Assembly: GCA_963777125.1 (NCBI GenBank)
Contig: CAVZPN010000024.1
Coordinates: 6,596 to 70,595, forward strand
Source: an uncultured archaeon
GTDB taxonomy: Archaea > Nanobdellota > Nanobdellia > Woesearchaeales > UBA9642
Reading direction: 5' to 3'
Length of the DNA stretch: 64,000 bases
Each line of letters opens with the position of its first letter. The stretch's first letter is position 1. Both the position numbers and the translations under genes were made by a program. The notes under the pieces are model-generated. The model saw only the letters and a list, made by a program, of their open reading frames with translations. It ran no database searches and was not told the origin of the DNA. This document shows positions 37,624 to 60,279 of the stretch, piece by piece.

Positions 37624-39169
37624 TTATTGTGGCTGTAATAACCATTTTTTAATTGATCTTAATTGTTTCATATCGTTTCTTGTGAAATCTCTTAAATCTT
37701 TAATATCGTAATATTGAGTTGTAATTCTTCCAAATCCAAATCCCCAAGCTAAAACAGGACACTCAAATCCCATTAAAGTTTTTGTAACTTCTGGTCTAAA
37801 CATTCCAGCGCCACCAAGTTCAACCCATTCATTTCTTTCTTTATTAAATACTTCAACTTCAATACTAGGTTCAGTATAAGGGAAATGTCCAGGTCTAATT
37901 TTTATCTTGTCATAACCCATTGCTTTGAAAAATACTTTAATATAACCAATTAAATCTTCAAATGTGGCATTAGGATCAACTACTATTCCATCTGTTTGAT
38001 AAAATTCAAATGAATGTTTCCAATCTACCGCTTCATTTCTAAATACTTTACCTATGTTGAAAAATTTAATTGGAAGATCTTCTTTTTTTAATTTAGATAT
38101 TGTCTGTGCAGATAATACAGTTGTATGAGTTCTTAGCATTAATTGTTTAGCTTTTTCTTCATCCCAAGTTCCACCCCAGCCGCAGCTTCCCGTATCTGCC
38201 CCATTTTCATGAACAGCTTTTATTCTCTTTTTTAATTCTTCAGGAATTTTTGCTTTTGAAGGCTTCTTTAAATAGAATGTATCTTGCATTTCTCTTGCCG
38301 GATGATCTTGTGGTACAAATAATGAATCTAAATCCCAGAACGCACTTTGAATCATTGTGCCAGACATTTCTTGAAATCCCTTATTTAACCATATTGATCG
38401 GGCATAATCCATAGCTTCATTTTCAAAATGTTTTTTTCCATAAACAATTTTTGGAACTTGAGATTTAATATCATACGATCTAAATTCTTTATTATTCCAA
38501 GATTTATTTCTAATTATTTCTTGTGTTAACACATCAATTACATCTTTATTTATAGAATCAAAATTTTGTAATAATTCACTTCCTAGAGCTGAAATAGTAA
38601 CTGTTTTTACTTTATCAACATCAACTTTTAAGATACTCTTACGTTTAACAAGTTCATTAAATGCATAGACTTCTTCAGATGACAATGCCTTTGGATCAAG
38701 TGGGAATGATTTTTTTAAGAAAATTTCTTCAAGTGTTTCTTTTTTTAATATATTTCGACCAAGAATCAGTCATAGAAACTAATACATCATTTCCTTTCTT
38801 TGCAATATTTATTGCTCCTTTCTTTTTTAATAATCCTAAAGAAACAGATACTTCTTCTTTTGATAATTTTGATGCTTTTTCAATATCTTTAATTGACATT
38901 TCATGATTTAAAGCGGTTAAAAATAATCTTTCTGGTAATCCTTGTTTAACATACAATTTACCATTTGTATCTAGAAATATTAATTGTTTAGAATCTTCTT
39001 TTAAATCTATTAGATTCTTATTTTTAAGCCATTGTAAGGCTCTACTTACTTCTACGTCTTTTAATTTAGAATTCTTCTCTAAATCACTAATTGTACTAAA
39101 TTTAGGAATAAGTGGCAATAATTTTCTCTCTAAAGGATGCAAACTATCCACTAGCTTTTTCAAATCCAA
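37624..39169 (-). CDS. pheS: phenylalanine--tRNA ligase alpha subunit, archaeal type, reading frame interrupted by a +1 frameshift at an A7 run
   Basis: 38729..39169 encodes the winged-helix N-terminal domain. 37624..38685 encodes the class II core (motif 2 FRNEAVDWKHSFEFYQTDG, motif 3 GAGMFRPEV). Manual translation shows the catalytic frame stays open upstream through the N-ORF stop. Removing one A from the A7 tract (plus-strand T7 at 38740..38746) fuses the two parts into one approximately 510 aa protein. Confidence 0.7.
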
Positions 39170-39630
39170 TGTTATAACCCCCTAAAATTCTATCTTTAGA
39201 TATAACAAATATATAAACCTATCTATTGTATTTATAAATAAACTGAGTAGAATCGACACTAAATATAACTATTGTAGGAGGACAAAAATAAGCAAATAGT
39301 ATACTATATACACACAAAATAAGTCATAACTAGAACAAGTAAATTATTTCACTAACAATAAAACACAAAATATTAAATCATAAAAATACACTATTAATAA
39401 AATATTAAAAATAATAATTATATTTAATAAATATCAATTAAAATTAAAAGCACATCTAAATACTCACTCTACATAATTCACCCCTCTCATCCAATAACAA
39501 TAATATAACCATTCTGTAAGGGTTAAAAACCAAAACATATATAAAGTAGTATACTTATTTCATTTCTATAGAATAGCAATTTTTAAGAAAAAGGGTGAAA
39601 AATTGACTAAGTATTAGTCGAGAGGTTAAA

Positions 39631-40449
39631 ATGATTGTTAAAGAAGAATTTTTAAGCAAGTTAAGAAGATATTTTGGTTTAAATCTTTACGAAGTAAAAA
39701 TTTGGACTGCACTGTTAAGTAGAGGAGTTTCTACAGCAGGAGAATTATCCGACATTGCAAATGTTCCAAGAAGTAGAAGTTACGATATTTTAGAATCTCT
39801 TGAGAAAAAAGGATTCGTTGTAATGAAAATTGGAAAACCTATAAAGTACATAGCTGTTTCTCCAAAAGAAATTGTTGAAAGAGTAAAGAAGAATGTAAGA
39901 ATAGACTCTGATGAAAAAATAAAACGACTTGAAGACTTAAAAGGAACTGACGTTGTAGATGAATTAAATAATTTACACACACAAGGTGTTGAAATTATAG
40001 AACCATCTGATTTAAGCGGAAGTTTAAAAGGAAGACACAACTTATACAATCATCTAGAATTAACTATTAAAAATGCAGAAGAAAGCGTTACTATAATGAC
40101 TACAAATGAAGGTTTAATGAGAAAAATAGAAGGATTAAAACCAGTATTTGAACAATTAAAGAAACGTGGCGTTAAAATAAAAATTGCTGCACCATTAAAT
40201 AAAGATTCAATCCCTGCAGTTAAAGATTTAGGCAACGTTGCTGAAATAAGACACACAGATGCAAAAGCAAGATTTACAATTGTAGATAGAAAAGAATTAT
40301 TATTTATGATTGCAGATGATAAAGAAGTTCATCCAACTTACGATGTAGGAATTTGGGTAAATACTCCTTTCTTTGCTAATGCTCTTGAAGAATTATTCGA
40401 ACTAGCATGGAAAGAAATGAAACCTGCAAAGAATGTACTTAAATTATAA
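39631..40449 (+). CDS. TrmB-family transcriptional regulator
   Basis: N-terminal LYEVKIWTALLSRGVSTAGELSDIANVPRSRSYDILESLEKKGFV TrmB winged helix, followed by a C-terminal effector-like domain. Confidence 0.7.
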   Translation: MIVKEEFLSKLRRYFGLNLYEVKIWTALLSRGVSTAGELSDIANVPRSRSYDILESLEKKGFVVMKIGKPIKYIAVSPKEIVERVKKNVRIDSDEKIKRLEDLKGTDVVDELNNLHTQGVEIIEPSDLSGSLKGRHNLYNHLELTIKNAEESVTIMTTNEGLMRKIEGLKPVFEQLKKRGVKIKIAAPLNKDSIPAVKDLGNVAEIRHTDAKARFTIVDRKELLFMIADDKEVHPTYDVGIWVNTPFFANALEELFELAWKEMKPAKNVLKL

Positions 40450-40538
40450 GTACTTATTTTTTTATTTATTTTTACTTCTTAAAATATAATTAATAATTGA
40501 AAAAAATATTTTCTCTTCCAAAATTCACACAATATTAA

Positions 40539-41300
40539 TTAAAATTCAAACTCTTGTCCAGGTAACACGAAACCTGCAAAGCCATCTGCTTTAGGATTTT
40601 TTGTCTCCCAATTTCCACTAAGATGTACTAAATAAGTTTTAGCTCTGTGTTCATCAGACATTTCTCTAAGTAATTTATCATAAGATATATGTACATCTCC
40701 TGGACCAGAATAAAAACATTGACAATCTTGAAATAATATTTTTTTATTTTCAGGAGGTAATTCAATAGTATCGCCAGAATAATAAATCCCATTTGCAAAA
40801 TCTATTGCATAAGACTCCATTCCTTGAACATGCATTGTCGGTACAAATTTAATTTCAGGAATACCTGGAATATTAATTTTAGAACTTACAACCGAATTAA
40901 AATAAGTGTCGAGTGACGCATCTAATGCTAAACCATTAAAATTTTGTATTTTTTGCATCGAACCTTTTAAACAGTTATTCCAAAGCATTTGTTTAAATCC
41001 TTCTGAACCAAGATATAAGTTAGGATTTTGTTCTTCCCTTTTTTTTAATCCAAAATAATTCATAAAACCCAATCCTTCAAGTCCGCCAACATGATCGCTA
41101 TGAGAATGAGTTATTAAAATATCAGTTATACTAGCTAATTCTCCTCGTTTAAGTAATTCAGACGTTACAGTATAACCACAATCTACAAGAAGATTTCTAT
41201 TTTGATCTCCTTTAACAAGAAAACTAGTATTTCCTAGTTTAAAATTGAGTCCCGACCCTGTACCTAACCAAATTAGTTTCATAATACTATCACTACTCAA
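40539..41300 (-). CDS. MBL-fold metallo-hydrolase
   Basis: ITHSHSDHVGG (HxHxDH) zinc-binding motif and a downstream conserved His. Confidence 0.7.
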   Translation of the reverse strand: MSSDSIMKLIWLGTGSGLNFKLGNTSFLVKGDQNRNLLVDCGYTVTSELLKRGELASITDILITHSHSDHVGGLEGLGFMNYFGLKKREEQNPNLYLGSEGFKQMLWNNCLKGSMQKIQNFNGLALDASLDTYFNSVVSSKINIPGIPEIKFVPTMHVQGMESYAIDFANGIYYSGDTIELPPENKKILFQDCQCFYSGPGDVHISYDKLLREMSDEHRAKTYLVHLSGNWETKNPKADGFAGFVLPGQEFEF

Positions 41301-41391
41301 GAGTAATGGCAGTATATATAAAAAATGTTAAGATTCATTTTTCATCTTTTAACGTAATATTTATATAATATTGCGACTTTAGATATAATTA

Positions 41392-42393
41392 ATGAAATAT
41401 ATATCTAATTCAAACGTAAAAAACAATATAAATCTAGATTTAAAAGATAAAAAAATATTAGGATATTTATCAGAAGATGCCAAAATATCAAGAAATATTC
41501 TTGCAAAAAAAGTAGGTCTTTCTAAAGATTCAGTCAAATATAGAATAGAACGATTAATAAGTAAAGGCATAATTCAAGGGTATAGAACAATAATAGATAT
41601 GAGTAAAATAGGATTTGAAAATTATCATATTTTTCTAAAATTAAATCCCTTGACTACAAGTATAGAATCCGAAATAGTAAAAAAACTTCAAAAATGCGAA
41701 TTTATAAGAGCAATAATAAAATATAATGGACGCTATGATTACGAATTAGCAATACTAGTACAAGGACCATTAGAATTTGAAAAAATATTTGAAAAAATAT
41801 TTAATGAATGTGATAATCAAATAAAAGACTATGAAATAGTACAATTGACAGAATATTATATAGTTAATACATTTCCAAAGAATTTTATAGAGCTAGATGA
41901 ACAAACATTTAGTAAAACCAGTAGTCTAATAAAAATAGATGAAAAAGATAGACAAATATTAAGCATAATATCAAACGATGCAATTTTACCTAATTACAAA
42001 ATAGGGCAACAGATAAACTTATCAGGTGATGCAGTAAGTTATAGAATTAAAAAAATGACTAAAGAAGGAGTAATTCAAAAAGCAATACCAATAATAAATT
42101 ATTCTGCTCTGGATTATGGAATATTTGCAATCCTTATAAGATTTAACAATGCGATAGATAATAGAAATTTAAAAATTAAAGACTTTTTCAAAACAAACAA
42201 AAATATTCTCTGGACTGTTAGATGTTTTGGTAAATATAATATTATTGCATATATTTGTGTAAACAACGTGAAACAATACCATGAAACCATGAATGAACTT
42301 AAAAATAACTTTTCTGAAATAATTATGAACATAGAAACATTAATATCTTATGAAGAACATAAATATAGTTACGTACCAAAAGTGATGCTTTAA
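41392..42393 (+). CDS. tandem double Lrp/AsnC-family regulator (two HTH+RAM modules)
   Basis: First module LDLKDKKILGYLSEDAKISRNILAKKVGLSKDSVKYRIERL. Second module IDEKDRQILSIISNDAILPNYKIGQQINLSGDAVSYRIKKM. Each is followed by a RAM-like region. Confidence 0.6.
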   Translation: MKYISNSNVKNNINLDLKDKKILGYLSEDAKISRNILAKKVGLSKDSVKYRIERLISKGIIQGYRTIIDMSKIGFENYHIFLKLNPLTTSIESEIVKKLQKCEFIRAIIKYNGRYDYELAILVQGPLEFEKIFEKIFNECDNQIKDYEIVQLTEYYIVNTFPKNFIELDEQTFSKTSSLIKIDEKDRQILSIISNDAILPNYKIGQQINLSGDAVSYRIKKMTKEGVIQKAIPIINYSALDYGIFAILIRFNNAIDNRNLKIKDFFKTNKNILWTVRCFGKYNIIAYICVNNVKQYHETMNELKNNFSEIIMNIETLISYEEHKYSYVPKVML

Positions 42394-42444
42394 AATTAAA
42401 TAAATACTAAAACATCAAATCCAAAGAAACTAAAATATGTTTTT

Positions 42445-43446
42445 TTAAGTAGATTCTTTCTTAATAACATACAACAATTCGCTTCCTAAAGTGTATTTTT
42501 CATAAGACCAGGCTAATTTATCTAGGAGTTTTTCAAACCATTGTCTTCTATGTTCCTTAATCTCTCTTACTCCGCCAATAGATAAAGTAGGAAATGTTAC
42601 GGCAAAATATTTTGTTGAAATACTCTTTAATAAACTTTCAGTAATATTCCATTTAATTCTTTCAAGACCATCAAGTGTCTTAAAAATAAAACATATATCA
42701 ACATTAATCTTAGTTAATTTCGGAAATATCTTTTCATCAGTTAAATCTGCAGGAAATATTATTGCATCAATAGTTGTTGTGTCAAAATAATCTTTTAAAA
42801 ATTTACAATCTTCACTAGATATATCTGAAGCATAATATTTTTCTATTTTTTCAGCAAATAACACACTACTAACTGGATTCATACCACAGGCTAAATCCAT
42901 AAAAATATATTTTGCAGAGTTATCTAACTTACCTGATTTATTAAACAACTTAGAATCTTTTTCAAAATCTTCGATTTTACCAAATATGGTAGTATATAAT
43001 TGATCATAATGATCCATTCTTTCTTTTGTTGATTTATGTAATGAAAATAATTGATTATGTAAATCCATATATTCAAAATTATCTTTAGACTTATCATCTT
43101 TTGAAATTGCTTCTAATTCTTCAAGAATTTTCAAACGTTTATTATATCCTTCAAGAATAAATACACCATATACTCTACGTAACTCAGCACGTAACTCTTT
43201 TATTAAAAATTTATATTCTCGACTTTTAGTAAATTGTTTATATGTTTTGGCATTATTTAATTTTATGAGAAACTTTTCTTTTGCTTGCTCATGATTTCTA
43301 TTCTTAAAAAAAACATCTAATTTATTTTTTATAAAATCTTCATCAAGTGTTCTTAATTCTTTTTTATCCTTAATATCTTGTATTAATTCATCTTCGTGTA
43401 ATAATTTAATTTCATGTTTTGTTTCATTAATTATATCTTCGCTCAT
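42445..43446 (-). CDS. putative class I SAM-dependent methyltransferase with N-terminal coiled-coil region
   Basis: Motif I-like FMDLACGMNP and a YASDIS acidic-loop motif. The rest is unassigned. Confidence 0.35.
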   Translation of the reverse strand: MSEDIINETKHEIKLLHEDELIQDIKDKKELRTLDEDFIKNKLDVFFKNRNHEQAKEKFLIKLNNAKTYKQFTKSREYKFLIKELRAELRRVYGVFILEGYNKRLKILEELEAISKDDKSKDNFEYMDLHNQLFSLHKSTKERMDHYDQLYTTIFGKIEDFEKDSKLFNKSGKLDNSAKYIFMDLACGMNPVSSVLFAEKIEKYYASDISSEDCKFLKDYFDTTTIDAIIFPADLTDEKIFPKLTKINVDICFIFKTLDGLERIKWNITESLLKSISTKYFAVTFPTLSIGGVREIKEHRRQWFEKLLDKLAWSYEKYTLGSELLYVIKKEST

Positions 43447-43496
43447 TTTAGTGTCCTATAATATTAGTTTAAAGTTCATTAATTATGAATATAATT

Positions 43497-44544
43497 TCAA
43501 TTAGTATAATCCTTCCATCTAAATATTGCTGCAATTCCGGTTAGACCATCTAATTTTTTCATTGCATCATCGCTACTTATTAATTTAACTTCAGCATTCA
43601 TAGCTTCAACAAGAGTCATAATATTCTCTACTACATCATACTTATGCTCCTTTTTCATTTTTTTTATATAATTATCAGAAATTAATAATTTTGCAACATT
43701 TCCAGCATTTACTTTTTCAAGAACTTCATCAGTTCCGTATACTGCTTCATCCTTAGTAATTTTTCCAAGTAATTCCTCAACTAATTTTACTTCACGTGTT
43801 GCTCTATCTTTATCGAGTACTGTTTTTAATTCAGAATCTTTTTAATATCTCATTAATTGCGCCATCATCAACACTTGAACAAGTTGCCAGCACAATTTTT
43901 TTAAGTATAGTATCATCTTTAACTTCTTTGATTAAATATTCTTTCCAAAATGCAGGACTTGCAAGAATTATATTATCAAATAAATATTTATGATTATAAG
44001 CCAATATATGAGAATAGATTTCTTGATAAAAGTTTGTTTTCTTCTCCTCCATATCCTTCTTTGAAACATCTCCTTTTAAATCAAGTAAAACTTCATATCC
44101 TTGATTTTTGAGTACTGCAAATATTGCTTCCTCACAATCAAACGCAACTATTAAAATATTTACTATTTGAGCATTAATTGCTTCATCAAGCTTTTTTAAA
44201 GCATATTTTGACCAAACAGCCTTAGTAAGAGTCACAACTACGCCTGACGTTAAATCGAAAGTATGATAATCCCCTTTCGGAATATCGTCTGGTGCTTCAA
44301 TTATTTTACCAGATAATCTTAATGAATCTTCATGTTCTAACTTTTCAACTTGTATTTTTAAGAAAACTATACGTTTAATAATTTTAGATTTATCTTCAGA
44401 ACCGCCTAATTTTAATTTTCTTTCAGTTGTACCACTAATAAAATCTCCTTCTTCAATAATACCTGCAAGATGCCATAAATCCGTAGTATCATCTACTTTA
44501 AGCTTTATTTCTCCATGTTTTAAGTCCTTATCTAATATTTTCAT
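43497..44544 (-). CDS. pelA: Pelota (Dom34) mRNA surveillance factor, reading frame interrupted by a +1 frameshift at an A5 run
   Basis: 43831..44544 encodes the Pelota N-terminal and central domains (MKILDKDLKHGEIKLKVDDTTDLWHLAGII...). Manual minus-strand translation of 43497..43830 in the adjacent frame gives the eRF1-like domain 3 (ATREVKLVEELLGKITKDEAVYGTDEVLEKVNAGNVAKLLISDNY...AIFRWKDYTN*). Deleting one T from the T5 run at 43839..43843 joins them into one approximately 345 aa protein. Confidence 0.7.
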
Positions 44545-44719
44545 TATACTAAGTAAATTTATTGCATTTCACCATAATTACAGCATTTAATTATACTTAA
44601 CTAAATAAAAGTCAATACAATTATGAATTAATAGCACAATATTTGTAAAATTATCTTAGAATTTAAAGTTATTCTTTATTTGCTTAATTTAATTAAATAA
44701 AATACCTTAATATGAACAA

Positions 44720-45679
44720 TTACTTCTCACTTGCACGTAAATCTTCAATTTTATTTGCAAGTATAATTCTTTCAAAAACAATAAAATAAGTGAACTGAAC
44801 AACAAGTGCTACTATTAAAGGTATTGCAGTATGTGCTGTAAAAAGCAACAAAACTATTGCAAGACCCGTCATTTCATTTTTTTGAGTAGAATATAATGAA
44901 TAATCAATTGCATCCATTTCTGATACAAACTGACGACTAACATAATATACTATTAAACCTAAAGTAAATATTACGGTAATATTTATCAAAAAGATATGTC
45001 TTATATTAATATCGCTGATATTTAGCAGTATTGATCTATTTAAGGATACAACAATAAAAATAATTAACCCTAATAATAAATTAGTAATTATTTTAGTATA
45101 ATTAAATAGGTAATTGATTACTTTAGTCTCAATATTTCTTGTTAAATAGGCTAAAATTATTGGAATTAAAATCAATATTAAAAGTGAACGTGCGAGTAAC
45201 ATAAATTTTATATTAGTACCAAAAAGAGCATATAATGTTGTTGGAATAATTATCAATGCAAGAAAATAACTTAAAATTAAAGCACTATCAGCAACTTTTA
45301 TATCACACTTTGCTAAATAACATAATGGAACTATAGCAATAGCAGGAGGAATTATTGCAAGTAAAACATAACCTAAAAAGTAATCTGAAGATAGTGGGAA
45401 AAATATTGAAGCAATAAGCAAATAAAATCCCGACAATAAAACATAATTTAATAGAATTGAAATAATAATACTTTTTCTGTCTGAAGAAATATTATTAAAA
45501 TTAGACTTTTTTTTAAAAAAAGGTCTTATTGATAAAAACATCACAACTCCAAGACTAATTTCAGTAATAGATTTAATAGAATTAACATTTATGATAAAAA
45601 TTAAAGGTAAAATTATAGCCATAATAAAAATAAGTTCAGTACTTTCAAACAAAGATTTAATGGAAAAATTAAAGACCAT
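44720..45679 (-). CDS. polytopic membrane protein (approximately 10 TM), possible transporter
   Basis: Highly hydrophobic 319 aa ORF. Divergently transcribed from the Cys-rich pilin-like gene. Confidence 0.45.
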   Translation of the reverse strand: MVFNFSIKSLFESTELIFIMAIILPLIFIINVNSIKSITEISLGVVMFLSIRPFFKKKSNFNNISSDRKSIIISILLNYVLLSGFYLLIASIFFPLSSDYFLGYVLLAIIPPAIAIVPLCYLAKCDIKVADSALILSYFLALIIIPTTLYALFGTNIKFMLLARSLLILILIPIILAYLTRNIETKVINYLFNYTKIITNLLLGLIIFIVVSLNRSILLNISDINIRHIFLINITVIFTLGLIVYYVSRQFVSEMDAIDYSLYSTQKNEMTGLAIVLLLFTAHTAIPLIVALVVQFTYFIVFERIILANKIEDLRASEK

Positions 45680-45892
45680 TAAATAATTAAGACATAACTA
45701 GTATATATTTGTTAGGTATTATAAAATATAGCTACTAAAACAAAAAATCGTAAGCAATAATAAATCAATTTTATTAACTAAAACAATAGTAATATTTATA
45801 AAGATGAATATCAAGTTTGATAATATTATCTCGAGTATTACAAAGAGTATTACAAGAGCAGAATTATCTACATAAAAAAAGGCATATTCAAG

Positions 45893-47578
45893 GTGAACAG
45901 CATGACTCAAAGAAGAGGACAAAGTGCAGGTAATGCAGCAGCATTTGTAGCAATATTAACCGTATTAATAATTGTATACATATTATTCTTACCTCCAGAT
46001 ATAAGAACTGAATTATTAGGAGATAAAAATGGAATATTAAATGATTCTAGTACTAGCACAAATACTGAAATACTATTAAAACAAAATATTGGCAAAGTCA
46101 CCTACATCAATACTGCTGAAAAAACATACGATTTACCAACTGTTCGAATATATTCTCCAACAAGCGGTCAAGTTCTAAAAAGTATTCCGAGTTCTAATAT
46201 AAGATACGCACTTTTTGATACTGAAAAATCTAAATATACTCTTGAATTAAATATTGATAAAAGATCCACAGAAAATCTTGTTTTAGTATTTAATGTCATG
46301 GAACATACAGGACCATTAATTATTGCTCTTAATGGTAATGAAATATTTAATGGCGAAGTAAAAACAACTAATCCTAAACCAATAAAACTTGATTCTGGAT
46401 CATTACTTGAAAACAATATTATAACATTTAGTGTCCCATCCCCTGGTTTAAAATTTTGGACTGCTAATAAATACACTTTAGAAAATATACAAATTACTGG
46501 CGATGTAACTGACTATAGTAATTCTATGGCCATACAAAATTTCGTTATAAGTCAAGTCGAGAAAGAAAATCTTGAAAGTATAAAATTATTTTTTTATCCT
46601 GATTGTGATTTATCTGAAGCTGGAAGCTTAAGAATTGATTTAAACGGAAGAGCAATATATAATAGTGTAGCAGATTGTGGAACAAGAACATTTGCAACAT
46701 TAAATACCAACGATATAATTTCAGGCAGTAATGAATTAAGATTTTATAGTGCTAAAGGATCATACATGTTAGATAATATGTATATCAAAACTACAATGAC
46801 AAAACCAGCATATAAAACATACTTCTTTGACTTAAAAGATGAATATTTTACATTTAAAACAAAAACTAGTATGTGTGGAGAATATGATGGCACATGTCCT
46901 ATTGGTTGTGATGAAACAACTGATGCTGATTGCTGCTTTGATAGAAAAGGATATTGGTGCGCTCTACCATTATCAAACGTTAATGATAGATGTAGATTCT
47001 ATGTAGCAAGCGATGATTGTTCATTATGTAAAACAGGATATTATGATGACAGCGGAGATGCTCCGACTACTTGTGAAAAAAAATGCGGAGATAACAACGA
47101 TAAAATCTGTGATAGTACTTGCTCGCAACCAAATAAATATTACGATAAAGATTGCTGCTTTGCACAAAGCAAGGATAATTTCTGGTGTAAAGAAACACCA
47201 ATAACAGGAATTGCAGACAAATGTAAACCAGCAATAAATCCTAGTGAATGTGACTTATGTCCATCAGGATACATCAATAAAGATGGCTCAGAACCTAAAT
47301 CATGTACTACTACAAACTTTAATATTCAAGATGAAGATTACTTATTTTCAAGCAATTATGAATTGAAAATCGTAGTTAAATTTGTTGATAGTACAACACG
47401 TAAACGTGTAGACTTTAATATCAATGGTCATACATTTAGAATTGATACAACAAATGTTGAATATACTAAATTAATCGCAGACTACGCTACAACTGGAACT
47501 AACAGCATTGAAATAAAACCAGTAGATAAAGATGTGGATATTTCAGAAGTTAGAGTAGAATTAAGAAGAGTTAAGTAA
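45893..47578 (+). CDS. pilin-like surface protein with class III (type IV prepilin-like) signal peptide and large Cys-rich ectodomain
   Basis: Likely true start is the ATG at 45902 (MTQRRGQ|SAGNAAAFVAILTVLIIVYILFL). This gives a short basic leader, a G at the cleavage position and a hydrophobic stretch. Internal duplicated Cys motifs (CSLCKTGYYDDSGDAPTTC / CDLCPSGYINKDGSEPKSC and DADCCFDRKGYWC / DKDCCFAQSKDNFWC). SD aggtga upstream. Confidence 0.55.
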   Translation: MNSMTQRRGQSAGNAAAFVAILTVLIIVYILFLPPDIRTELLGDKNGILNDSSTSTNTEILLKQNIGKVTYINTAEKTYDLPTVRIYSPTSGQVLKSIPSSNIRYALFDTEKSKYTLELNIDKRSTENLVLVFNVMEHTGPLIIALNGNEIFNGEVKTTNPKPIKLDSGSLLENNIITFSVPSPGLKFWTANKYTLENIQITGDVTDYSNSMAIQNFVISQVEKENLESIKLFFYPDCDLSEAGSLRIDLNGRAIYNSVADCGTRTFATLNTNDIISGSNELRFYSAKGSYMLDNMYIKTTMTKPAYKTYFFDLKDEYFTFKTKTSMCGEYDGTCPIGCDETTDADCCFDRKGYWCALPLSNVNDRCRFYVASDDCSLCKTGYYDDSGDAPTTCEKKCGDNNDKICDSTCSQPNKYYDKDCCFAQSKDNFWCKETPITGIADKCKPAINPSECDLCPSGYINKDGSEPKSCTTTNFNIQDEDYLFSSNYELKIVVKFVDSTTRKRVDFNINGHTFRIDTTNVEYTKLIADYATTGTNSIEIKPVDKDVDISEVRVELRRVK

Positions 47579-47625
47579 AATTCTCTAGTAATGAGGTGTA
47601 AGCCTAAGGTGAGGCTAAAGTAAAT

Positions 47626-49182
47626 ATGGGAACAGATAAAGCCGATAAAGATACTGAGAATTCTAAAGAAACTAATAAAGTAGCTAACGCTGGTAAAAAA
47701 ACTGCTGATGCAATAAACGCAGCTGGCGACGCTACATTAAGAAGTTTACGTAATGCTGGAAAAGCAATTGGAGGAAGTGGCGATTCATCATCTAGTTCTA
47801 AATCAAGTAGCGGATCTAATGGTGCAATCGCAATATTATTTGTAATTTCATTATTTCTTCACATTCTTGATTCTATTACTAAATTTGATAGACCAGGATT
47901 TATGTTATTTTATTATATTGGTCTAATAATATTTGCTTTTTTCTTTATTTTTAATATGAAACTTAACCAAGAGGGTGAAAAACAATTATTAGTAGTTATT
48001 TTCATATCTTATTTATTGCCTTTTGCAATAAAATATTTACCAGATAACAGATGGATACTTGCAATTTCAGGAATACTATTTTTAATTCCACTATTACCAC
48101 TATATATTGGACTACAGGCACCTCAAGATTCATTTTTATATAAATTTACAAAATGGTATATTGTCTTTTGGATAATCATACTAGCATTTTATCTTGTAGC
48201 AACATTTGCACCGACACAAGTAAGTACAGCACAACTTAAAGGAAATGTATGGACAGGAGCATCATATGTTTTGGGAAATACTGGAAAAACAATAAGTACT
48301 GTTACAACATCAGCAAATAATGCTCTAGCACGTGCTATTGCGCAAGCAACTGGAGAACCATATGATGGTCAAGAAGAAAGCAGAGTTGGAATTTATGTTG
48401 AAAATGTTAAAGCACTAGAATCAGGATATAATACTAACTCGGATGTTTTTGTTGAAGCTAAAATTAAAGCAATAAATCTAAAAGAACCAGTTAGAGTTAC
48501 AACAATATGTTATATTCCTGCAGTTCGTCAAGGAATTACAAATCCAGCTATCTTACCTGAAGTTAGTGCAGATTATGAAAATATTATTGATTGTGAACTA
48601 GGAAAATTAACTGCAGGAAATCATGAAGTAAAAGTACGTGCAATATTCGAGTTTAAAAGTACATCAGATATTGAATACACTTTTGTTAGCACTAATATTA
48701 AAACTGATCAATATACTAAATTAAATATTGATCCTACAACAATTGCAACATATACAGGTGGACCAGTAGCTGTTGGTTTACCATCCATAAAACAACCATT
48801 ACGAATAGAATTAGATCCTGATAAAACTGATGCAATGACTTATCCATTTGGAGTTAGCTTACAAAATAAATGGCCGCAAGGAAAAATTATGAAAGGATTA
48901 CAGTATAAATTAAATACTCCAAAAGAAGTAAAATTAGTTGAATGTAGTAGAACACCTACTGAAGTAAAAGAACCTGATGTTGATGGAAGAAACATATACA
49001 TATTTAATATTGATACTACCAATGCTCAAGATGTATTTGATGCAGTTAGATGTAGAATGCAAATAAGTGACGCGAAAGGATTATTAGGTAATGATCTAAA
49101 AAGCGTAAAAACATTTGCTGCAGAAGCAACATACGAGTACTCAGTTGAAAGCTCTGCAAGTATTAATATTATTAAAAGTTAG
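47626..49182 (+). CDS. polytopic membrane protein whose extracellular C-terminal domain belongs to the locus-specific paralog family
   Basis: Ser-rich N-terminus and approximately 6 TM helices. Ectodomain has the family N-terminal block (VGIYVEN...NTNSDVFVEAKIKAINLKEPV) and a GGPVAVGLPSIKQP block. Confidence 0.5.
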   Translation: MGTDKADKDTENSKETNKVANAGKKTADAINAAGDATLRSLRNAGKAIGGSGDSSSSSKSSSGSNGAIAILFVISLFLHILDSITKFDRPGFMLFYYIGLIIFAFFFIFNMKLNQEGEKQLLVVIFISYLLPFAIKYLPDNRWILAISGILFLIPLLPLYIGLQAPQDSFLYKFTKWYIVFWIIILAFYLVATFAPTQVSTAQLKGNVWTGASYVLGNTGKTISTVTTSANNALARAIAQATGEPYDGQEESRVGIYVENVKALESGYNTNSDVFVEAKIKAINLKEPVRVTTICYIPAVRQGITNPAILPEVSADYENIIDCELGKLTAGNHEVKVRAIFEFKSTSDIEYTFVSTNIKTDQYTKLNIDPTTIATYTGGPVAVGLPSIKQPLRIELDPDKTDAMTYPFGVSLQNKWPQGKIMKGLQYKLNTPKEVKLVECSRTPTEVKEPDVDGRNIYIFNIDTTNAQDVFDAVRCRMQISDAKGLLGNDLKSVKTFAAEATYEYSVESSASINIIKS

Positions 49183-49195
49183 AATAATTTAACCA

Positions 49196-50671
49196 TTGAA
49201 AGGAACAGTTATGAAAATAAGTATTAAAAAAAATAATAGCGTATTAATGAGTATATTTATATTGCTTACAGTAATATTTTTAACAGGATGTCAGGGTAGT
49301 GGTACTACGGAAAAATATCGTATTGGAACTGAAGGATTAAACTTAGAATTTGCATCATCTAATGTTAAAAGTGTATACGAAAACGAAAACTTCGGAACAT
49401 CAATAATTATCAAAAATATTGGTAGTTATGATATTTTAGATCAGAGTAATCCCGCAATATTAAAAGTTAGTTTTGATGATTATAGATTAAAATTTACTAA
49501 TTCTAAAGAAAATGTTAAAGAACAACAAATGTTAATTAATGGTAAAAGCAAATATTATCCTAAAGGAGATGAAATAAACTCAGAATACTATTTTGAATCA
49601 TTAAAACTCACTGATTTGAGAGAAAAATCAACTACTGAAATTAATTATAACTTATGTTATCCATATAATACTGAAATAACCACAGTTACATGTATTGATA
49701 CAAAACTTGCTAATAAAGATCAAACTGCAGCAGCATGTGCAAGTGAAACATATAGCGGATCTCAAGGTCAAGGAGCACCAATTGTTATAACTAAAATCGT
49801 ACCAGAAATCATGTTGCAAACAGAATATGTACGTCCACAATTTAAAATATATATTGAAAATAAGGGACCTGGATATGTTAATAACGCAAATAGTTGCAAT
49901 GTTGCAGATATTAATGATAGATCATCTTCAGGAAGAGTTAACGTATACGCTACTCTTTCAGGAACTCCTTTAGAATGTGGTCCTGATAATTCAGCATCAC
50001 TAAAATTAGTTGATTCTGAATCATTTATTAGATGCTATCTTCCAAATAAAGAAAAAGGATATTCACGATTAGAAAAAAATTATTTAACTCCATTAACAGT
50101 TAGTATTGATTATACCTATACTGTAATTACTAAACAAGAAATAGAAATTAAAAGAGATGACACAATAGAACGTGTTGTAACAAAAGACTGTGATTCATAT
50201 CAAATATTAAATGAAAATAAAACATGTGTTGATAAATGCTTATATTGTACCACTCATCCAAATGAAGATGTATGTAAAGTAAATTTACCTTTTGCAGAAT
50301 TTGAATTTAAAGAAGGTTTTTCATGTAGTTGTACTCTTGATCAATGTAATAGCAGAAATAAAACAGGAAATTGTATTAAAGGATATTGCCCTGGTAGTTT
50401 GTATTGCTGTAATACTCCTGTTGTTTGTGATAAATATCAAATAGAATTTAAGGGAAAATGTATCAATAAATGCGATTACTGCAGAGATAACTGGACTACA
50501 AACCCTAATGATCCTATTTGTCTCTCTAAATATGATTTTACTAACGCAAAATGTGATTCAATTACTGCGACAACATGTGATTCATTAGCAAAAAATAATT
50601 CCTGCATAAAAGGATTTTGTGGAGGAACAGATTCAAATAAATATTGTGTAAATACCTTTCCACAAGTATAG
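49196..50671 (+). CDS. lipobox-containing (LTGC) surface protein, paralog family member with Cys-rich C-terminal repeats
   Basis: Signal peptide ending LTGCQGSG. Family N-terminal block (GTEGLNLEFASSNVKSVYENENFGTSIIIKNIG). GSQGQGAPIVITKI. Repeated CIKG(Y/F)C(P/G)G Cys motifs. Confidence 0.55.
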   Translation: MKGTVMKISIKKNNSVLMSIFILLTVIFLTGCQGSGTTEKYRIGTEGLNLEFASSNVKSVYENENFGTSIIIKNIGSYDILDQSNPAILKVSFDDYRLKFTNSKENVKEQQMLINGKSKYYPKGDEINSEYYFESLKLTDLREKSTTEINYNLCYPYNTEITTVTCIDTKLANKDQTAAACASETYSGSQGQGAPIVITKIVPEIMLQTEYVRPQFKIYIENKGPGYVNNANSCNVADINDRSSSGRVNVYATLSGTPLECGPDNSASLKLVDSESFIRCYLPNKEKGYSRLEKNYLTPLTVSIDYTYTVITKQEIEIKRDDTIERVVTKDCDSYQILNENKTCVDKCLYCTTHPNEDVCKVNLPFAEFEFKEGFSCSCTLDQCNSRNKTGNCIKGYCPGSLYCCNTPVVCDKYQIEFKGKCINKCDYCRDNWTTNPNDPICLSKYDFTNAKCDSITATTCDSLAKNNSCIKGFCGGTDSNKYCVNTFPQV

Positions 50672-50744
50672 ATTAAAAAAGCAGAATATATTATACTTAA
50701 AAAAAACATAATCTTTATATATTATACACACAGGAGTTAATAAA

Positions 50745-52046
50745 ATGGTATTCAAACTAAACAATAAAATATTCTTAATAAGCACCTTAGTAATTGTTTT
50801 AATTTTAATTACTGGATGCGGAAGCACTACAAGTAATGTTCAAAAAAAATATTACACAGGATATAACAGTTTAGAAATGAATTTTTTAAGCGATAGTCCA
50901 CCATCAATATTTTATTATGACAGTGAAGCTCATGATAGAGGGGACTATGCTGCAAATACTATACCAATACTTGTTCAAATACAAAATAAAGGTTCATCTG
51001 ACAGTTATGGTGCATTATTTATACATGGATTTGATCCAAATATAGTTGCTATTCAAGGATATACTTCAGGATTTCCAGGATATAATGGTCCAATTAGAGG
51101 AGCTAGTTCTTTTGGCGGATGGTACGGTAACAATAATAATTATGCAATTAACGCATTAAATGTTCCTATAGGTACAAATAGCTATAGTTTAAATCTTCAA
51201 AAAGTCAATGGCCAAACAGGAATATCTTTTTCATCATTTGGATCTCGTTCACAATTATTCGGATCACTCGGATTCTCTAAGACATCACAAGTAGGAACTG
51301 GCTATACTGGAATAAATGTTGGTGTAGTACAAAATCGTGTTGGCTCAGTATTAAATCCTATAACTCGAGGAATGTTTAATCAATATGGTTGGAATGGTTG
51401 GTTAAAAGAACTTGAATTAGAGGGTAGAAATTCTGAAAATCCTGCAGGCGGAATGGATGTTATAGAATTCCCTGCAACAATATTAACACTTCCTCCATCA
51501 CTAGAAGAATTTAGACAAAGAGTAATGGTTACATCATGTTTTGATTACGCAACACATTCATCAACAATGGTATGTATTGATCCAGAACCATACTCTAATG
51601 TTAAAAAATCTTGTTTAATAAATACTGTAAGCGGAGGCGCAGGTCAAGGAGCTCCTGTTGCGGTTACAAGTATTGAACAAAGACCTGGCAAGGGCAGAAC
51701 TACATTTATTATAAATATTAGACACAATAAACAAGGAACATACGATGAATTATATGATTACTTTAATTTATACAAATGTGATCCAGCATCTGGCGCAACT
51801 GTAAAAACAAATGATAAAAACATTGTATATGTTGGATATGTGTACTTATCTCAATATGATATAACAATGGATTGTATGCCTGATCAAATGATTAGACTTG
51901 ATGATTCGGGTTCAGGTCAGATAACATGTTCAATAACTTTCCCAGAAGGAATGGCAAGTAGCGCATATCAAGCACCGCTTGAAGTAGAATTATGGTATGG
52001 TTATTCGAAAACAATATACAAAGATATGATTATTAGAAGAATATAA
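50745..52046 (+). CDS. lipobox-containing (ITGC) surface protein, paralog family member
   Basis: Signal peptide ending ITGCGSTT. Family N-terminal block (TGYNSLEMNFLSDSPPS...IPILVQIQNKG) and GGAGQGAPVAVTSIEQ. Confidence 0.55.
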   Translation: MVFKLNNKIFLISTLVIVLILITGCGSTTSNVQKKYYTGYNSLEMNFLSDSPPSIFYYDSEAHDRGDYAANTIPILVQIQNKGSSDSYGALFIHGFDPNIVAIQGYTSGFPGYNGPIRGASSFGGWYGNNNNYAINALNVPIGTNSYSLNLQKVNGQTGISFSSFGSRSQLFGSLGFSKTSQVGTGYTGINVGVVQNRVGSVLNPITRGMFNQYGWNGWLKELELEGRNSENPAGGMDVIEFPATILTLPPSLEEFRQRVMVTSCFDYATHSSTMVCIDPEPYSNVKKSCLINTVSGGAGQGAPVAVTSIEQRPGKGRTTFIINIRHNKQGTYDELYDYFNLYKCDPASGATVKTNDKNIVYVGYVYLSQYDITMDCMPDQMIRLDDSGSGQITCSITFPEGMASSAYQAPLEVELWYGYSKTIYKDMIIRRI

Positions 52047-52104
52047 ATTAGTATAATAATAGTATAAACAAATATAATAATTAAATAAACCTAAAGGTGA
52101 TAAA

Positions 52105-53088
52105 ATGAATAAAGGCATAGTATTGGTAATGATTTTGGCTATAAGTTTGTTTTTAACTGGTTGCGGTAATACGGGCACAACAACCGGTAAAACATTTATT
52201 GGTGGAACAGAAGGATTAAAAACAAGTTTTCTTTCAGGAAATCCTCCAGCTGTAACAACAGACGGCGGAACTACACCATTTAGTATCGGCATAAAAATGG
52301 AAAATATGGGAGAAAGTAGTATTAAATCTAGCGACGGATATGTAGAAATTTGGGGAGCAGATGCTTCAACATATAGTTCTAAATATCCTGACTTTAAAAA
52401 AACATTTTCACAAGAAGCAACTTTTGGAGAAGAATTAAGTGGTGCTAAAATGAATTATGGTAACCAACTACACGGCGGAACCAGCACTCTTACATTTGAT
52501 GACTTAAAATATGTTCCTATAATCACTGGTGATAATCGTGAACAATTAATTAGAGCAAATGTTTGTTACAAATACTCAACACAAGCAACAGCACAAATTT
52601 GTGTAAAAAATAATATAGAACAAGCACTTAGTGGAAAAGAAATATGTACTGTTGAAGAAGAGAAAAATCCTCAAAATAGCGGCGCACCAATACATATTAC
52701 ATCATTAAAAGAATTCTATGGGGGTAATGGAAAAATAGGAATAACATTAACAATTGCTCATGTAGGAAATGGAGATGCATTTTTCAAAGATGATCAAATA
52801 AAATGCGTTGATAGCTTAAGCAACGGCGATAAAGGAAAAGTCAGAATAAAATTCAAAGACATACAATTAGGTGGAAAGAGTATTCCTGTAGTATGCCCTG
52901 GCGTTAGCGAAGATGGATATGTTAGATTGTATAGCGAAGGTGCAGGAAAAGAATCAACTAATGTTCAATGTACAATCGATGTTTCTGGCAATAAAAATGT
53001 TGTAGAGGTACCAATAGAAGCAGAATTAAGCTACGTATACTTACAACACATAGAAACTGGCTTAACAATACGACATGTAGTTCAATAA
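52105..53088 (+). CDS. lipobox-containing (LTGC) surface protein, paralog family member
   Basis: Signal peptide ending LTGCGNTG. Family N-terminal block (GGTEGLKTSFLSGNPPAV...FSIGIKMENMG) and NSGAPIHITSLKE. Confidence 0.55.
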   Translation: MNKGIVLVMILAISLFLTGCGNTGTTTGKTFIGGTEGLKTSFLSGNPPAVTTDGGTTPFSIGIKMENMGESSIKSSDGYVEIWGADASTYSSKYPDFKKTFSQEATFGEELSGAKMNYGNQLHGGTSTLTFDDLKYVPIITGDNREQLIRANVCYKYSTQATAQICVKNNIEQALSGKEICTVEEEKNPQNSGAPIHITSLKEFYGGNGKIGITLTIAHVGNGDAFFKDDQIKCVDSLSNGDKGKVRIKFKDIQLGGKSIPVVCPGVSEDGYVRLYSEGAGKESTNVQCTIDVSGNKNVVEVPIEAELSYVYLQHIETGLTIRHVVQ

Positions 53089-53255
53089 ATAATTGAACTA
53101 TAATTTTTTAATTTACTTTTTTATTTTCTTACTTCTCATTCTAAATATTATAAAAATTATTCAAACAAAAATTAACACTATTACAACTAAATACCTAACT
53201 TCTTAAAATATGCTGACGTTAAATATTATTAAAATAGACGTAAATTAAAACAAAG

Positions 53256-53273
53256 AATCCGGCATATCGGATT
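53256..53273. terminator. hairpin AATCCG-GCATAT-CGGATT between convergent genes
   Basis: 6-bp perfect stem in an otherwise AT-only intergenic region between 52105..53088 (+) and 53355..54575 (-). Confidence 0.25.
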
Positions 53274-53354
53274 AATCTCTAATATAATAAATCATAAGTA
53301 GGAGTAAATAGAAAATAGTTATTAAAATATTTGATTAAATAAAATCATTCTTAC

Positions 53355-54575
53355 TTAACTTGTTACAAACATTCCGCCCATAAGTGTTGCAAACATCATA
53401 GAAGCCACATAATAAATTATTAATGATATAATTATAAATATTGGAATAAGCTTAGTACCATCTTTAACACTGCCTTTTCTAATAACACTAATTATAGCTG
53501 CAGAAAAGAACGAAGATATAATTAATACTAACATCGAAAATCTTCTAAAATCGTTAACATTAATGCTGTCATTAGAAAAATTAAAACTAAAAGAACCCAT
53601 ACCAGAGCTGTCTAATTGCAAACTACCAAAAATTTGCTGTATGATAATTAATAATTGAGTACTTAATGCAAATAATAATGGTGCCGCAAGTACTGAAGCT
53701 ACACCAATAAATATTGCATAAGTTGTAACACTAGCACCGATTTCTTTACGCATTAATTGCGTTTCTTTAATATTACTAGATAATTTATTCAATAATACTG
53801 CCATTTCTCCGCCGCTTCTAATACCCTCTACGATTAAATTTATTGTCTCTCGCAACATTCTTGATTCATACTTAGTTCCAAGACGCAATAATGCCGTTTC
53901 TAAATCATCTCCAACAATCGTAGATTTAGCAACATTTTCCATTTCTACAGCAAGTATTCCAAATTTTGATCGTATAGCATACCATAATGCTCTATCAACA
54001 GTCATTCCTGCACTAATATTAGCAGAAGCTAATTGTAAAAAATCAGGTAATGATTCTTCAATTTGACGTACACGATTATACATTTGTACATCCAAATATA
54101 AAAATATTGCAAGTATTGATAAAAAATATATTGCTAAAAATACTAATATCCAAATTACTAGTAAAAACAAGAATAATACATCAAGAGATTTATGATTAAC
54201 AATTACAAAAGATAAGATAATAAAAGATAATATTGCAGATATTATTGCGACAATTGTTAATATCTTTTTATTAATGTCTCTCGGACTAATCTCAAGACCC
54301 ATCCTAGTAACAAAATCTGCAAATAATCCTATTAACTTTTTTTTAGGCTTTGAAACTCTATCAAATTTACTGCTATTTTTTTGTAAGGCAACTCTCTTTA
54401 AATCTTTTTCAAAAGTGGCTTGATCAAAGTGTGCTTTTAATAAATTATTAAACTTGTCTCTAAAATTATTTAATGAGTTGAATTCTTTAAACTGTACAGA
54501 ACTATCTTGACTAGATATTAACTCTTCTTTAAAGTTTTTCAAACTTCTCTTTTTGTGTTCTATTGTATCGCTCAT
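53355..54575 (-). CDS. type II secretion system F-domain membrane protein (TadC/FlaJ-like)
   Basis: T2SSF-like segment (LPDFLQLASANISAGMTVDRALWYAIRSKFGILAVEMENVAKS...LETAL) flanked by TM helices. Confidence 0.65.
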   Translation of the reverse strand: MSDTIEHKKRSLKNFKEELISSQDSSVQFKEFNSLNNFRDKFNNLLKAHFDQATFEKDLKRVALQKNSSKFDRVSKPKKKLIGLFADFVTRMGLEISPRDINKKILTIVAIISAILSFIILSFVIVNHKSLDVLFLFLLVIWILVFLAIYFLSILAIFLYLDVQMYNRVRQIEESLPDFLQLASANISAGMTVDRALWYAIRSKFGILAVEMENVAKSTIVGDDLETALLRLGTKYESRMLRETINLIVEGIRSGGEMAVLLNKLSSNIKETQLMRKEIGASVTTYAIFIGVASVLAAPLLFALSTQLLIIIQQIFGSLQLDSSGMGSFSFNFSNDSINVNDFRRFSMLVLIISSFFSAAIISVIRKGSVKDGTKLIPIFIIISLIIYYVASMMFATLMGGMFVTS

Positions 54576-54633
54576 TTTTCTATTATTAATATTATTTATA
54601 CAATCATAATATAACTACATTATAAACATCATT

Positions 54634-55425
54634 TTATGTACTTATGGATGGTCTTGATGACTTTGCAACTGATAAAAACATAAATTGTACAAATCCAATC
54701 ATCACTGCAAGTACAACGAGTATAGTCATACTAATCTTTAAACCCATAAATGAAGCAGCAATTACTAGCATAGTTATTCCGAGTGATGGTACAATTATGG
54801 AAATAGTCATATAAAACATTGCTAAAGGACTAAGTTTTTTACCATATTCTGAAACAGCAATAGCTTGTTCTCGAACAATTTGTTCAGCCACTGAATTTAA
54901 TGCTCCTGCAACTTCAGTTCCTGTTTGCAAAGAATTCATTACTTGCCATAATAATCTTCGTAAATTTGGTGAAGGCGAAGTATTTAATGTATCACTTATG
55001 GCATCTTCCATTGTGGTCCCAAAATAAACTTTATTCAATATTTCACCAAAATAATATCCTATATATTCATAATTTTTTTCCATATCCTCAAATATTTTAT
55101 GTATTGGAACACCAGATTCTATTCCAATAATTAAAAATCGTGCAGCAAAAATTATTTCTTCATCTATTTTCTTTTTTATCTTTTCTATTTTTACATCTAC
55201 ATATTTTATAAAATACATAAATAAAAAAGGAAGACTAAATGGAATAATTAATATTGCCAAAAATGACGAAGTAAAAAAAAAGAACATAAAAAATAAACCT
55301 ATAGAAATCATCACTATTGTTGCAACTGTAGATTTAATATACTCTTCAGGCTCAGCAAGTATACCTGCTTGTCTAAGTTTTAGTCTTAACTCAGGCATAC
55401 GTTTGGAAAGGTAGGAATATAGCAT
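54634..55425 (-). CDS. type II secretion system F-domain membrane protein (TadB/FlaJ N-half-like)
   Basis: T2SSF-like segment (GVPIHKIFEDMEKNYEYIGYYFGEILNKVYFGTTMEDAISDTL) plus 3 TM helices. A 58 nt gap with stops in all frames separates it from the next gene. Confidence 0.6.
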   Translation of the reverse strand: MLYSYLSKRMPELRLKLRQAGILAEPEEYIKSTVATIVMISIGLFFMFFFFTSSFLAILIIPFSLPFLFMYFIKYVDVKIEKIKKKIDEEIIFAARFLIIGIESGVPIHKIFEDMEKNYEYIGYYFGEILNKVYFGTTMEDAISDTLNTSPSPNLRRLLWQVMNSLQTGTEVAGALNSVAEQIVREQAIAVSEYGKKLSPLAMFYMTISIIVPSLGITMLVIAASFMGLKISMTILVVLAVMIGFVQFMFLSVAKSSRPSIST

Positions 55426-55541
55426 AATATCACATTTTTGTTAAAACAATAACAACCCATAATAATATATTAAGGTTAAGTACAATATACTCACACATTA
55501 CAATTAATAGAGTATAATCTTATTATAATTAAAAGTAATAC

Positions 55542-59250: not shown

Positions 59251-60279
59251 TTAAGGACATGCTGTTTCATTTATATTATCTAAACCATAAAATGTTTTTC
59301 TATCTCTTGGCAATATTAAAGGATACAAAGGATTATGAGTTAAATTAATACATACTTTATTAACATTTAAATCGTTAAAATAAATATAATCTACCTTTAT
59401 TCGTTTAGGATATGATGTTAATTCGGGATTCAATAAAATCCTATCATCTACAATACTTTCTATACCGTAAGGATCTGAAGTAGTTTTTCCTTCAAAACGC
59501 ATAATAAAAGTAGGAGCATTACTAGATTCAATATAATACGAACTATTAATATGATTTTGTAAAGTCATAAGACTAATATCATTAAACAAAATACTAGAAT
59601 TAATAGTAGAATTTAATCTTCGGATAGTATTTGGAACTTTATTAAATGTATTTTTACTATATAAGGGATCTCTTAAATTATCAATAGGAACGGTTGTTAC
59701 GTATTCTTTATTAATATTCCATGATGCAGTATGTTTATTATCTATAAGAGTTATATTCAAAGCCATATATACATCAATATTCCATGGATCAGATTGCACT
59801 AAATTAATATTTGAAACATTAATGTTTAAATCCATACCAGTATTACTAGATATAGCATCTACTTTAGAAACATAATCATAAAAAGTCGAATTAGCCATTA
59901 TGGGCGAGTTAGTTCCATTTATTGTACCATAATAAAACGTTTCTCTAAAAGACTCATTAATATTTGTTAAATAAACCCCGCTCGTAGTTACATAATCCTC
60001 GAGAGCCAATAAAGTCCTAAACGCAGAGATATATGTTGCACGGTGAATATCATTATTTAAATTTTTAGTAAAATCATTCATTGATCTGATCCTTATTTGT
60101 TGTAATAATTCTTGATCTTGATATCTGTAATTACTAGCAGCAAAAAATATACTAAGTAAAATAGCAACCATAAGCGTTGTAACTAAAACATAAGTAAATC
60201 CTTTACGACTTTTTCTAGAAGTAATGATTAAATTAGATAGTATATTCTTTAAATTCTTAAGTAGCATAATCATTGCCAT
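59251..60279 (-). CDS. pilin-like protein with class III signal peptide
   Basis: N-terminus ...SRKSRKG|FTYVLVTTLMVAILLSIFFAA, a basic leader with G-F then a hydrophobic helix, like prepilins. Start overlaps the end of the giant upstream gene by 10 nt. Confidence 0.5.
   Translation of the reverse strand: MAMIMLLKNLKNILSNLIITSRKSRKGFTYVLVTTLMVAILLSIFFAASNYRYQDQELLQQIRIRSMNDFTKNLNNDIHRATYISAFRTLLALEDYVTTSGVYLTNINESFRETFYYGTINGTNSPIMANSTFYDYVSKVDAISSNTGMDLNINVSNINLVQSDPWNIDVYMALNITLIDNKHTASWNINKEYVTTVPIDNLRDPLYSKNTFNKVPNTIRRLNSTINSSILFNDISLMTLQNHINSSYYIESSNAPTFIMRFEGKTTSDPYGIESIVDDRILLNPELTSYPKRIKVDYIYFNDLNVNKVCINLTHNPLYPLILPRDRKTFYGLDNINETACP

Follow-up and report, generated by a model that had tools for sequence, protein, structure and literature searches.

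An apparent frameshift in an archaeal pelota gene as a very probable consensus artefact at a GATCT site

In the 64,000-nt stretch of archaeal DNA analysed here (hereafter the window; 27.9% G+C over its whole length), the gene for Pelota is interrupted by a single-base frameshift, and this interruption is very probably an artefact of consensus calling or assembly. The frameshift almost certainly does not reflect the way in which the organism expresses the gene, and its DNA probably does not carry it either. According to this reading, the Pelota consensus would carry one spurious T at 43835/43836, GATCT having been written as GATTCT, and the spurious T would shift the frame, create the TGA at 43831..43833 and cut off the C-terminal domain. 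The break in pheS 5 kb away would be the same kind of event, with GATCTT written as GATTCTT. Both breaks would most likely represent consensus or basecalling errors at sites of ambiguous reads, and the organism would make normal full-length Pelota and PheRS-alpha through standard translation.

Archaeal Pelota (aPelota/Dom34) is a factor for mRNA surveillance and ribosome rescue, and as a paralogue of eRF1 it belongs to the release-factor superfamily. As assembled, the gene occupies two reading frames, and the features of the locus are as follows:

43831..44544, minus strand: Pelota 0-frame ORF, 237 aa, with eRF1_1 and eRF1_2; premature TGA at 43831..43833
43497..43830, minus strand: eRF1_3, the C-terminal domain of Pelota, read in the +1 frame and closed by the true stop, TGA (43497..43499)
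43839..43843, minus strand: A5 tract (plus-strand T5), kept in the closest relatives and not the lesion
43835..43836, minus strand: extra base, TT versus a single T in relatives (AGA-TTCT-GAA versus AGA-TCT/TCC/CCN-GAA)

A sequence-only reading of this DNA had described the 237-aa minus-strand ORF ending in ...AINEILKRF-TGA, an A5 run at 43839..43843, and a Pelota C-terminal domain encoded in the +1 frame. These observations were borne out: the ORF is present at 43831..44544, the coordinates of the A5 run are correct, and the fused protein carries eRF1_1, eRF1_2 and eRF1_3. The +1 frame contains no stop between 43841 and 43500 (minus strand), encodes ...SELKTVLDKDRATREVKLVEELLGKITKDEAVYG... 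and overlaps the 0 frame by 11 nt. On the minus strand, the window sequence at 43831..43839 is GATTCTGAA, and the whole frameshift-site cassette reads AAAAGAUUCUGAAUU. After repair, the protein is 348 aa long, a length shared with 47 of the 120 best homologues, and a Pfam search found its three domains in order, namely PF03463 eRF1_1 (residues 1-123), PF03464 eRF1_2 (133-238) and PF03465 eRF1_3 (249-344); the unrepaired ORF lacks domain 3, the break falling in the linker between eRF1_2 and eRF1_3. The repaired protein is 81% identical to its closest orthologue, and the matches annotated as 'mRNA surveillance protein pelota' in Woesearchaeota show 81-43% identity to it. The gene order pelota-FmrO-TrmB-pheS-80aa-pheT is common to relatives, and the best protein matches of the window point to a Woesearchaeota (DPANN) archaeon as its source. 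Judged by its sequence, then, the window gene is an ordinary archaeal Pelota of 348 codons: the repaired product resembles the aPelota/Dom34 family in length, in its eRF1_1/2/3 domains and in conserved synteny, and differs from it only as assembled, when the C-terminal domain is missing.

The position of the lesion was determined from a DNA alignment of the window with five relatives, taken from fetched syntenic loci. The alignment contains a single 1-nt gap, located 2-3 bases 3′ of the A-run (AGA-[T]TCT-GAA). Both the A-run and the Arg codon that follows it are kept in relatives (AAAAAGA/AAAAAGG), whose junctions read TTAAAAAGA-TCT-GAA, ...AGA-TCC-GAA or ...AGG-CCT-GAA, compared with AGA-TTCT-GAA in the window. 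The spacer between the Arg and Glu codons is thus 4 nt (TTCT) in the window and 3 nt in relatives. At the protein level, the repaired window protein aligned with 119 homologues (120 sequences in all) gave the junction consensus E-[IV]-L-K-R-[P99/S6]-E-L, in which Arg and Glu are invariant (120/120). Because of the alignment gap and the invariant Arg and Glu, the extra base must be among the four nucleotides that separate the AGA and GAA codons; the simplest assignment is to the second T of the TT at 43835/43836, and the correct repair, on the same alignments, is ...EILKRSELK..., 348 aa. The lesion had earlier been placed in the A5 tract itself, a placement contradicted by the A-run and Arg codon retained in relatives and by the more 3′ position of the gap. 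The repair proposed with it, removal of one T from the T5 run (that is, deletion of an A), gives ...ILKDSELK and is wrong because it destroys the invariant Arg.

A protein search returned 621 Pelota homologues, of which the 120 best (81-46% identity) were inspected. Among these, setting aside four short hits of 226-334 aa whose contigs measure 1.6-4.6 kb, only one, P0041, stops at the Pelota site. P0041 (237 aa) is 100% identical to the window ORF, is known from one 86,813-bp contig, and is the product of this genome itself. The gene is unbroken in all 14 of the fetched genome loci, and residues 1-345 were recovered as one unbroken tblastn segment in 13 GTDB species representatives, the closest of which shows 69% identity. 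Scans of genome_contigs and metagenome_contigs with exact patterns, aimed at the source contig or another genome of the species, found no match. Furthermore, a degenerate search pattern written with four nucleotides between the Arg and Glu codons (E-[IV]-L-K-R-NNNN-E-L-K-T-V-L-D) finds a single place in the window and none in the 241 million JGI records scanned (metagenome_contigs); as a positive control, the corresponding 3-nt-spacer pattern matches 8 of 22 fetched loci. The C-terminal part of the window gene shows dN/dS values of 0.147 and 0.167 against two relatives (loci L001 and L002, respectively), compared with 0.183 between those two intact genes, and no further indel or stop is found in the 1,047 nt of Pelota. 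This absence of decay downstream of the lesion indicates that the lesion is either extremely young or not real.

The sequence-only reading had also noted a second broken gene, which is indeed pheS, an essential, single-copy gene, split into 38729..39169 and 37624..38685. Its features are the following:

38729..39169, minus strand: pheS N-terminal fragment, 146 aa, the companion break
37624..38769, minus strand: remainder of pheS in the +1 frame (stop-to-stop; listed ORF 37624..38685)
38764..38765, minus strand: TT in GATTCTTGG, the extra T being absent from Logan contig L023

The motif GATTCTTGG spans 38759..38767 (minus strand), upstream of an A7 run, and has 4 nt (TCTT) between GAT and GGT where 3 are expected. 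In nine relatives the corresponding protein segment reads L-T-D-[V/I/N]-G-R-N-[I/V/M]-[L/I]-K-K, and the +1 frame of the window already encodes G-R-N-I-L-K-K upstream of the A7 run. The gene forms one unbroken segment in 11 relatives, and repaired pheS is 514 aa long (...MTDLGRNI...). Here again, the proposal that a single A had to be removed does not stand, the extra base lying outside A7, at GAT-TCTT-GGT. The alignment of relatives rules out a lesion in the A5 run of Pelota or in the A7 run of pheS, as do the invariance of the Arg and the conservation of the GRN motif.

Direct evidence on the pheS base came from an independent assembly. Exact-protein look-ups of two neighbour genes, one of them SBF called from the ATG at 45541, led to two Logan de Bruijn contigs of run ERR12037365 (ERR12037365_3367889 and ERR12037365_7108398; hereafter L023 and L024, in no implied order). 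Exact look-ups with P0041, the 237-aa ORF, two SBF start variants and the 561-aa neighbour gave no match, and no publication was found in a literature search for the run. Over the two contigs together, the aligned bases agree with the window at 17,479 of 17,479 positions, the sole difference being the missing extra T of pheS. L023 (5,773 bp) corresponds to window 43832..38059 and, over 5,774 aligned positions, departs from it only by the missing T at 38765; it reads GATCTTGG (GATCTT versus GATTCTT in the window), which restores an intact pheS (T-D-L-G-R-N). L024 (11,706 bp shown, of a 12,478-bp contig) corresponds to window 55541..43836 at 100.000%. Since no substitution occurs over the 17,479 aligned bases, the window and run ERR12037365 represent the same population, and a strain difference made up solely of the pheS and Pelota frameshifts is much less likely than a consensus error.

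At the Pelota site, the two contigs stop and restart on either side of the window bases TCT (43835..43833). L024 ends at 43836 with ...AAAAAGAT (in a longer view, ...TTAAAAAGAT), and L023 starts at 43832 with GAATTAAAA... (in a longer view, GAATTAAAAAC). The contigs carry partial Pelota genes of 236 aa plus a leftover T and of 111 aa from base 1, which would be in one frame if they lay 2 nt apart; the window has 3 nt. No Logan contig shows the intact GATCTGAA at the Pelota site directly, the k-mers there being branched or not reproducible. Logan drops k-mers seen once and leaves contigs of 150 bp or shorter unreported (PMC12424806), and because of these filters the double contig break fits a disagreement among reads at the Pelota bases. 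Given breaks every 5-12 kb, we estimate that two contig ends would fall within 0-3 nt of the disputed bases by chance in about 1/1000 cases. The left contig ends in GAT and the right one starts with GAA, whereas a simple GATCT/GATTCT bubble predicts TCTGAA. Because the break geometry is unlike that of a simple bubble, the reads at this position probably comprise at least three variants, or two of which the second is not the expected one. The other end of L023 lies inside pheS at window 38059, with ...AAATTTTTC and AACATAGG on its two sides; the window sequence there is unremarkable, and the end suggests low coverage or microdiversity of the population in ERR12037365.

Both lesions have the form GATCT to GATTCT, that is, the insertion of a T into the palindrome GATC; they lie on one strand, separated by 5.07 kb (43833..43838 and 38762..38767). 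This form is read directly for pheS, from L023, and for Pelota it is deduced from the AGATCT/AGATCC of the closest relatives. Random base duplications would share at least 6 nt of context with P ~0.01. As a lead rather than a conclusion, the shared GATCT context points to a context-specific technical process, such as miscalling of a modified GATC or flow- or k-mer-specific overcalling. We infer that the cause is a sequencing or consensus error and not a real minority allele, and the common GATC(T) context would then reflect a context-specific error, e.g. through base modification or flow/k-mer-specific miscalling. The lesions affect 2 of ~124 GATC sites, and such a motif-linked error is therefore far from systematic. 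A systematic error at every GATC site is ruled out by the 122 sites remaining in the window (versus 156 expected, a ratio similar to that of other palindromes) and by the nine GATC sites within the Logan-covered stretch that are identical to the window.

The earlier suggestion of an artefact is thus supported in outline, but not in its attribution to homopolymers, the extra bases lying outside A5 and A7. Systematic homopolymer error fails on the same ground, T having become TT outside both runs, and on the ~650 runs that show no broken gene. The window contains ~390 homopolymer runs of 5, 156 of 6, 79 of 7 and 20 of 8, a spectrum equal to that of relatives, and none of the ~650 A/T runs of 5-9 nt in the window coincides with a gene break. 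Moreover, no other split or truncated gene was detected among the ~60 window genes by a coding-potential scan, which sought overlapping same-strand open frames, by tblastn with relatives' ORFs, or by Pfam searches of ~50 ORFs. Adjacent pairs, among them 8208/8529, 16785/17370, 6794/7419, 28551/29141, 1695/2827 and 59251/60270, proved to be separate genes, since their domains are complete or they overlap in an ATGA. The pair 25297/26240 has no Pfam hit or mutual similarity, and was judged to be separate genes solely from the ATG after the upstream stop.

Nanopore genomes of Nanobdellota carry ~5.9 split or truncated genes each, about 0.4% of loci (bioRxiv 10.64898/2026.05.13.725050), and frameshift artefacts in metagenome-assembled or long-read genomes are the subject of Watson & Warr 2019, going by the citation in that preprint. 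The Pelota break resembles such artefacts in that one inserted or deleted base divides a conserved gene into neighbouring ORFs on the same strand, and in being unique to one assembly, undecayed downstream and absent from an independent assembly. It differs from them in that T has become TT inside GATCT and not in a long homopolymer. With 2 of ~60 genes affected, both within 5 kb, the rate in the window is above the 0.4% of Nanopore genomes.

An alternative that we consider unlikely is that the extra T is real and very recent, either fixed or segregating, in which case the assembler would have picked up a newly arisen pseudogene, or a strain-level null allele, of Pelota and perhaps of pheS. The Logan graph break at the Pelota site fits at least two real alleles as well as it fits errors, the undecayed downstream part is compatible with a very young lesion, and Pelota is dispensable in some organisms. 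However, a real mutation would need two independent frameshifts within 5 kb, both in core translation genes, one of which (pheS) is essential. It would also have to be reconciled with the zero substitutions in 17.5 kb against an assembly with an intact pheS, and with the absence of both lesions from every relative. Finally, the identical GATCT to GATTCT form at the two sites resembles a technical context effect.

It is very improbable that the frameshift is real and corrected during expression, the second and, to its author, more interesting of the two explanations in the sequence-only reading, which spoke of tolerated or programmed frameshifting. Two mechanisms could bring such a correction about. 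In one, the ribosome, with tRNA-Phe in its P site and a slowly decoded UGA in its A site, would slip by +1 at AGA-UUC-UGA-A and read GAA next; the other is quadruplet decoding. A shift at UUC-U-GAA would keep the invariant Arg and Glu and yield a 348-aa product with Phe in place of Ser, and the 0-frame stop of Pelota, UGA, is rare as a genuine stop (4 of 54 genes). In these 54 window genes, the genuine stops are TAA in 42, TAG in 8 and TGA in 4, to which Pelota's own TGA is to be added. Against this proposal, the site is found in no relative examined, and it offers no re-pairing codon: UUC to UCU re-pairs poorly, and by inspection of AGA-UUC-UGA-A both UUC to UCU and AGA to GAU mispair. In the A5 run, AAA to AAA would re-pair, but a shift there destroys the invariant Arg. 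No SD-like (GGAGG-like) or other element occurs in the sequence upstream of the Pelota site, and stimulatory structure is likewise wanting, RNA folding being no better than that of shuffled sequence (z = +0.87 for the 96 nt downstream of the Pelota site and z = +2.02 for the 126 nt spanning the pheS lesion).

The companion lesion also tends to speak against recoding. At Pelota, the A-site codon is UGA after UUC, whereas at pheS it is UGG, not a stop, the 0-frame UGA lying 12 codons past the lesion; the shared GAUUCU is in a different codon register in the two genes. Moreover, pheS is intact in the independent Logan assembly, and the frameshifted sequence is not reproduced in these data, in which no reproducible k-mer path crosses the Pelota site. 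The shared 'UGA then A' stop, earlier read as a possible signal, is uninformative because it is the first 0-frame stop in 15% of random +1 insertions in window genes. UGA as a sense codon was rejected, the 0 frame reaching a TAA seven codons later.

Two known systems provide a measure of what a genuine site looks like. The bacterial prfB gene (RF2) has a programmed +1 frameshift at CUU-UGA-C that is conserved across most bacteria and relies on a re-pairing P-site codon (CUU to UUU) and an upstream SD-like stimulator. The Pelota case resembles it in that a release-factor superfamily gene requires a +1 shift at, or beside, a UGA in frame, but has neither the conservation, the re-pairing codon nor the SD-like stimulator, and no orthologue shares the site. 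The eukaryotic antizyme +1 frameshift at UCC-UGA-U is deeply conserved, with conserved 5′ and 3′ (pseudoknot) stimulators. It is likewise a +1 shift at a stop without good P-site re-pairing, to which UUC-UGA-A is formally similar, but no such structure or conservation exists at the Pelota site. There is only a very slight chance that the GATTCT alleles are real in a broader sense, with full-length Pelota and PheRS-alpha made by +1 shifting at UUC-UGA-A or by quadruplet decoding, or with GATC-targeted insertion of T in vivo creating switchable null alleles of translation genes. If real, +1 recoding in this ribosome-rescue factor would rank among the few archaeal cases of programmed frameshifting.

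Least probable of all is a true split gene, as found in Nanoarchaeum equitans, whose product would consist of two polypeptides, one comprising the N-terminal and central domains and the other the C-terminal domain. DPANN-type archaea are known to have split genes and the break does fall in the linker between eRF1_2 (133-238) and eRF1_3 (249-344), but this reading is disfavoured because no downstream start yields a complete domain 3 (the first ATG/GTG/TTG in the downstream frame, an ATG, gives 53 aa lacking half of eRF1_3), and, in addition, the frames overlap by 11 nt only, the break is exactly one base off intact orthologues, and the gene is split in no relative.

If the two breaks are consensus errors, as we consider very probable, core genes on this contig contain no fewer than two such errors, each of a single base and each at GATCT, and the contig should be flagged for quality accordingly. 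Annotators would do well to repair Pelota and pheS and not to score them as pseudogenes or losses; their correct scoring bears on inferences about gene content and 'reduced genomes' in DPANN archaea.

Several other features of the window were recorded. Between FmrO and TrmB lie two genes that are absent from this position in two relatives (loci L004 and L005, which have nothing there), a third (L002) having an unrelated 226-aa gene. The first (40539..41300, minus strand) encodes a metallo-beta-lactamase-fold protein matching Pfam Anti-Pycsar Apyc1 (PF23023; 58.6 bits, cut-off 50). The second, which adjoins it (41392..42393, plus strand), encodes a 333-aa protein with two AsnC/Lrp-type HTH domains. 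Rfam and tRNA scans detected no tRNA, rRNA or Rfam family in the 64-kb window. Tandem SPFH/Band_7 paralogues of 376 and 345 aa are encoded at 1695..2825 and 2827..3864 (plus strand), the stop of the first lying 1 nt before the next start. At 9425..10273 (plus strand), a 282-aa protein has an N-terminal, sub-threshold SymE_toxin/AbrB-like hit (25.8 bits, cut-off 29), and an ORF of more than 1,185 aa at 60270..63827 has no Pfam match. Lastly, 45893..53088 (plus strand) and 53355..57839 (minus strand) form a conserved syntenic block with five large proteins lacking Pfam hits. Its members include a 561-aa protein that is rich in Cys and has a hydrophobic segment at the N-terminus. The block adjoins genes for two T2SSF-like membrane proteins and a 765-aa T2SSE/PilB-like ATPase, and together with these it is probably a pilus or surface-appendage locus.
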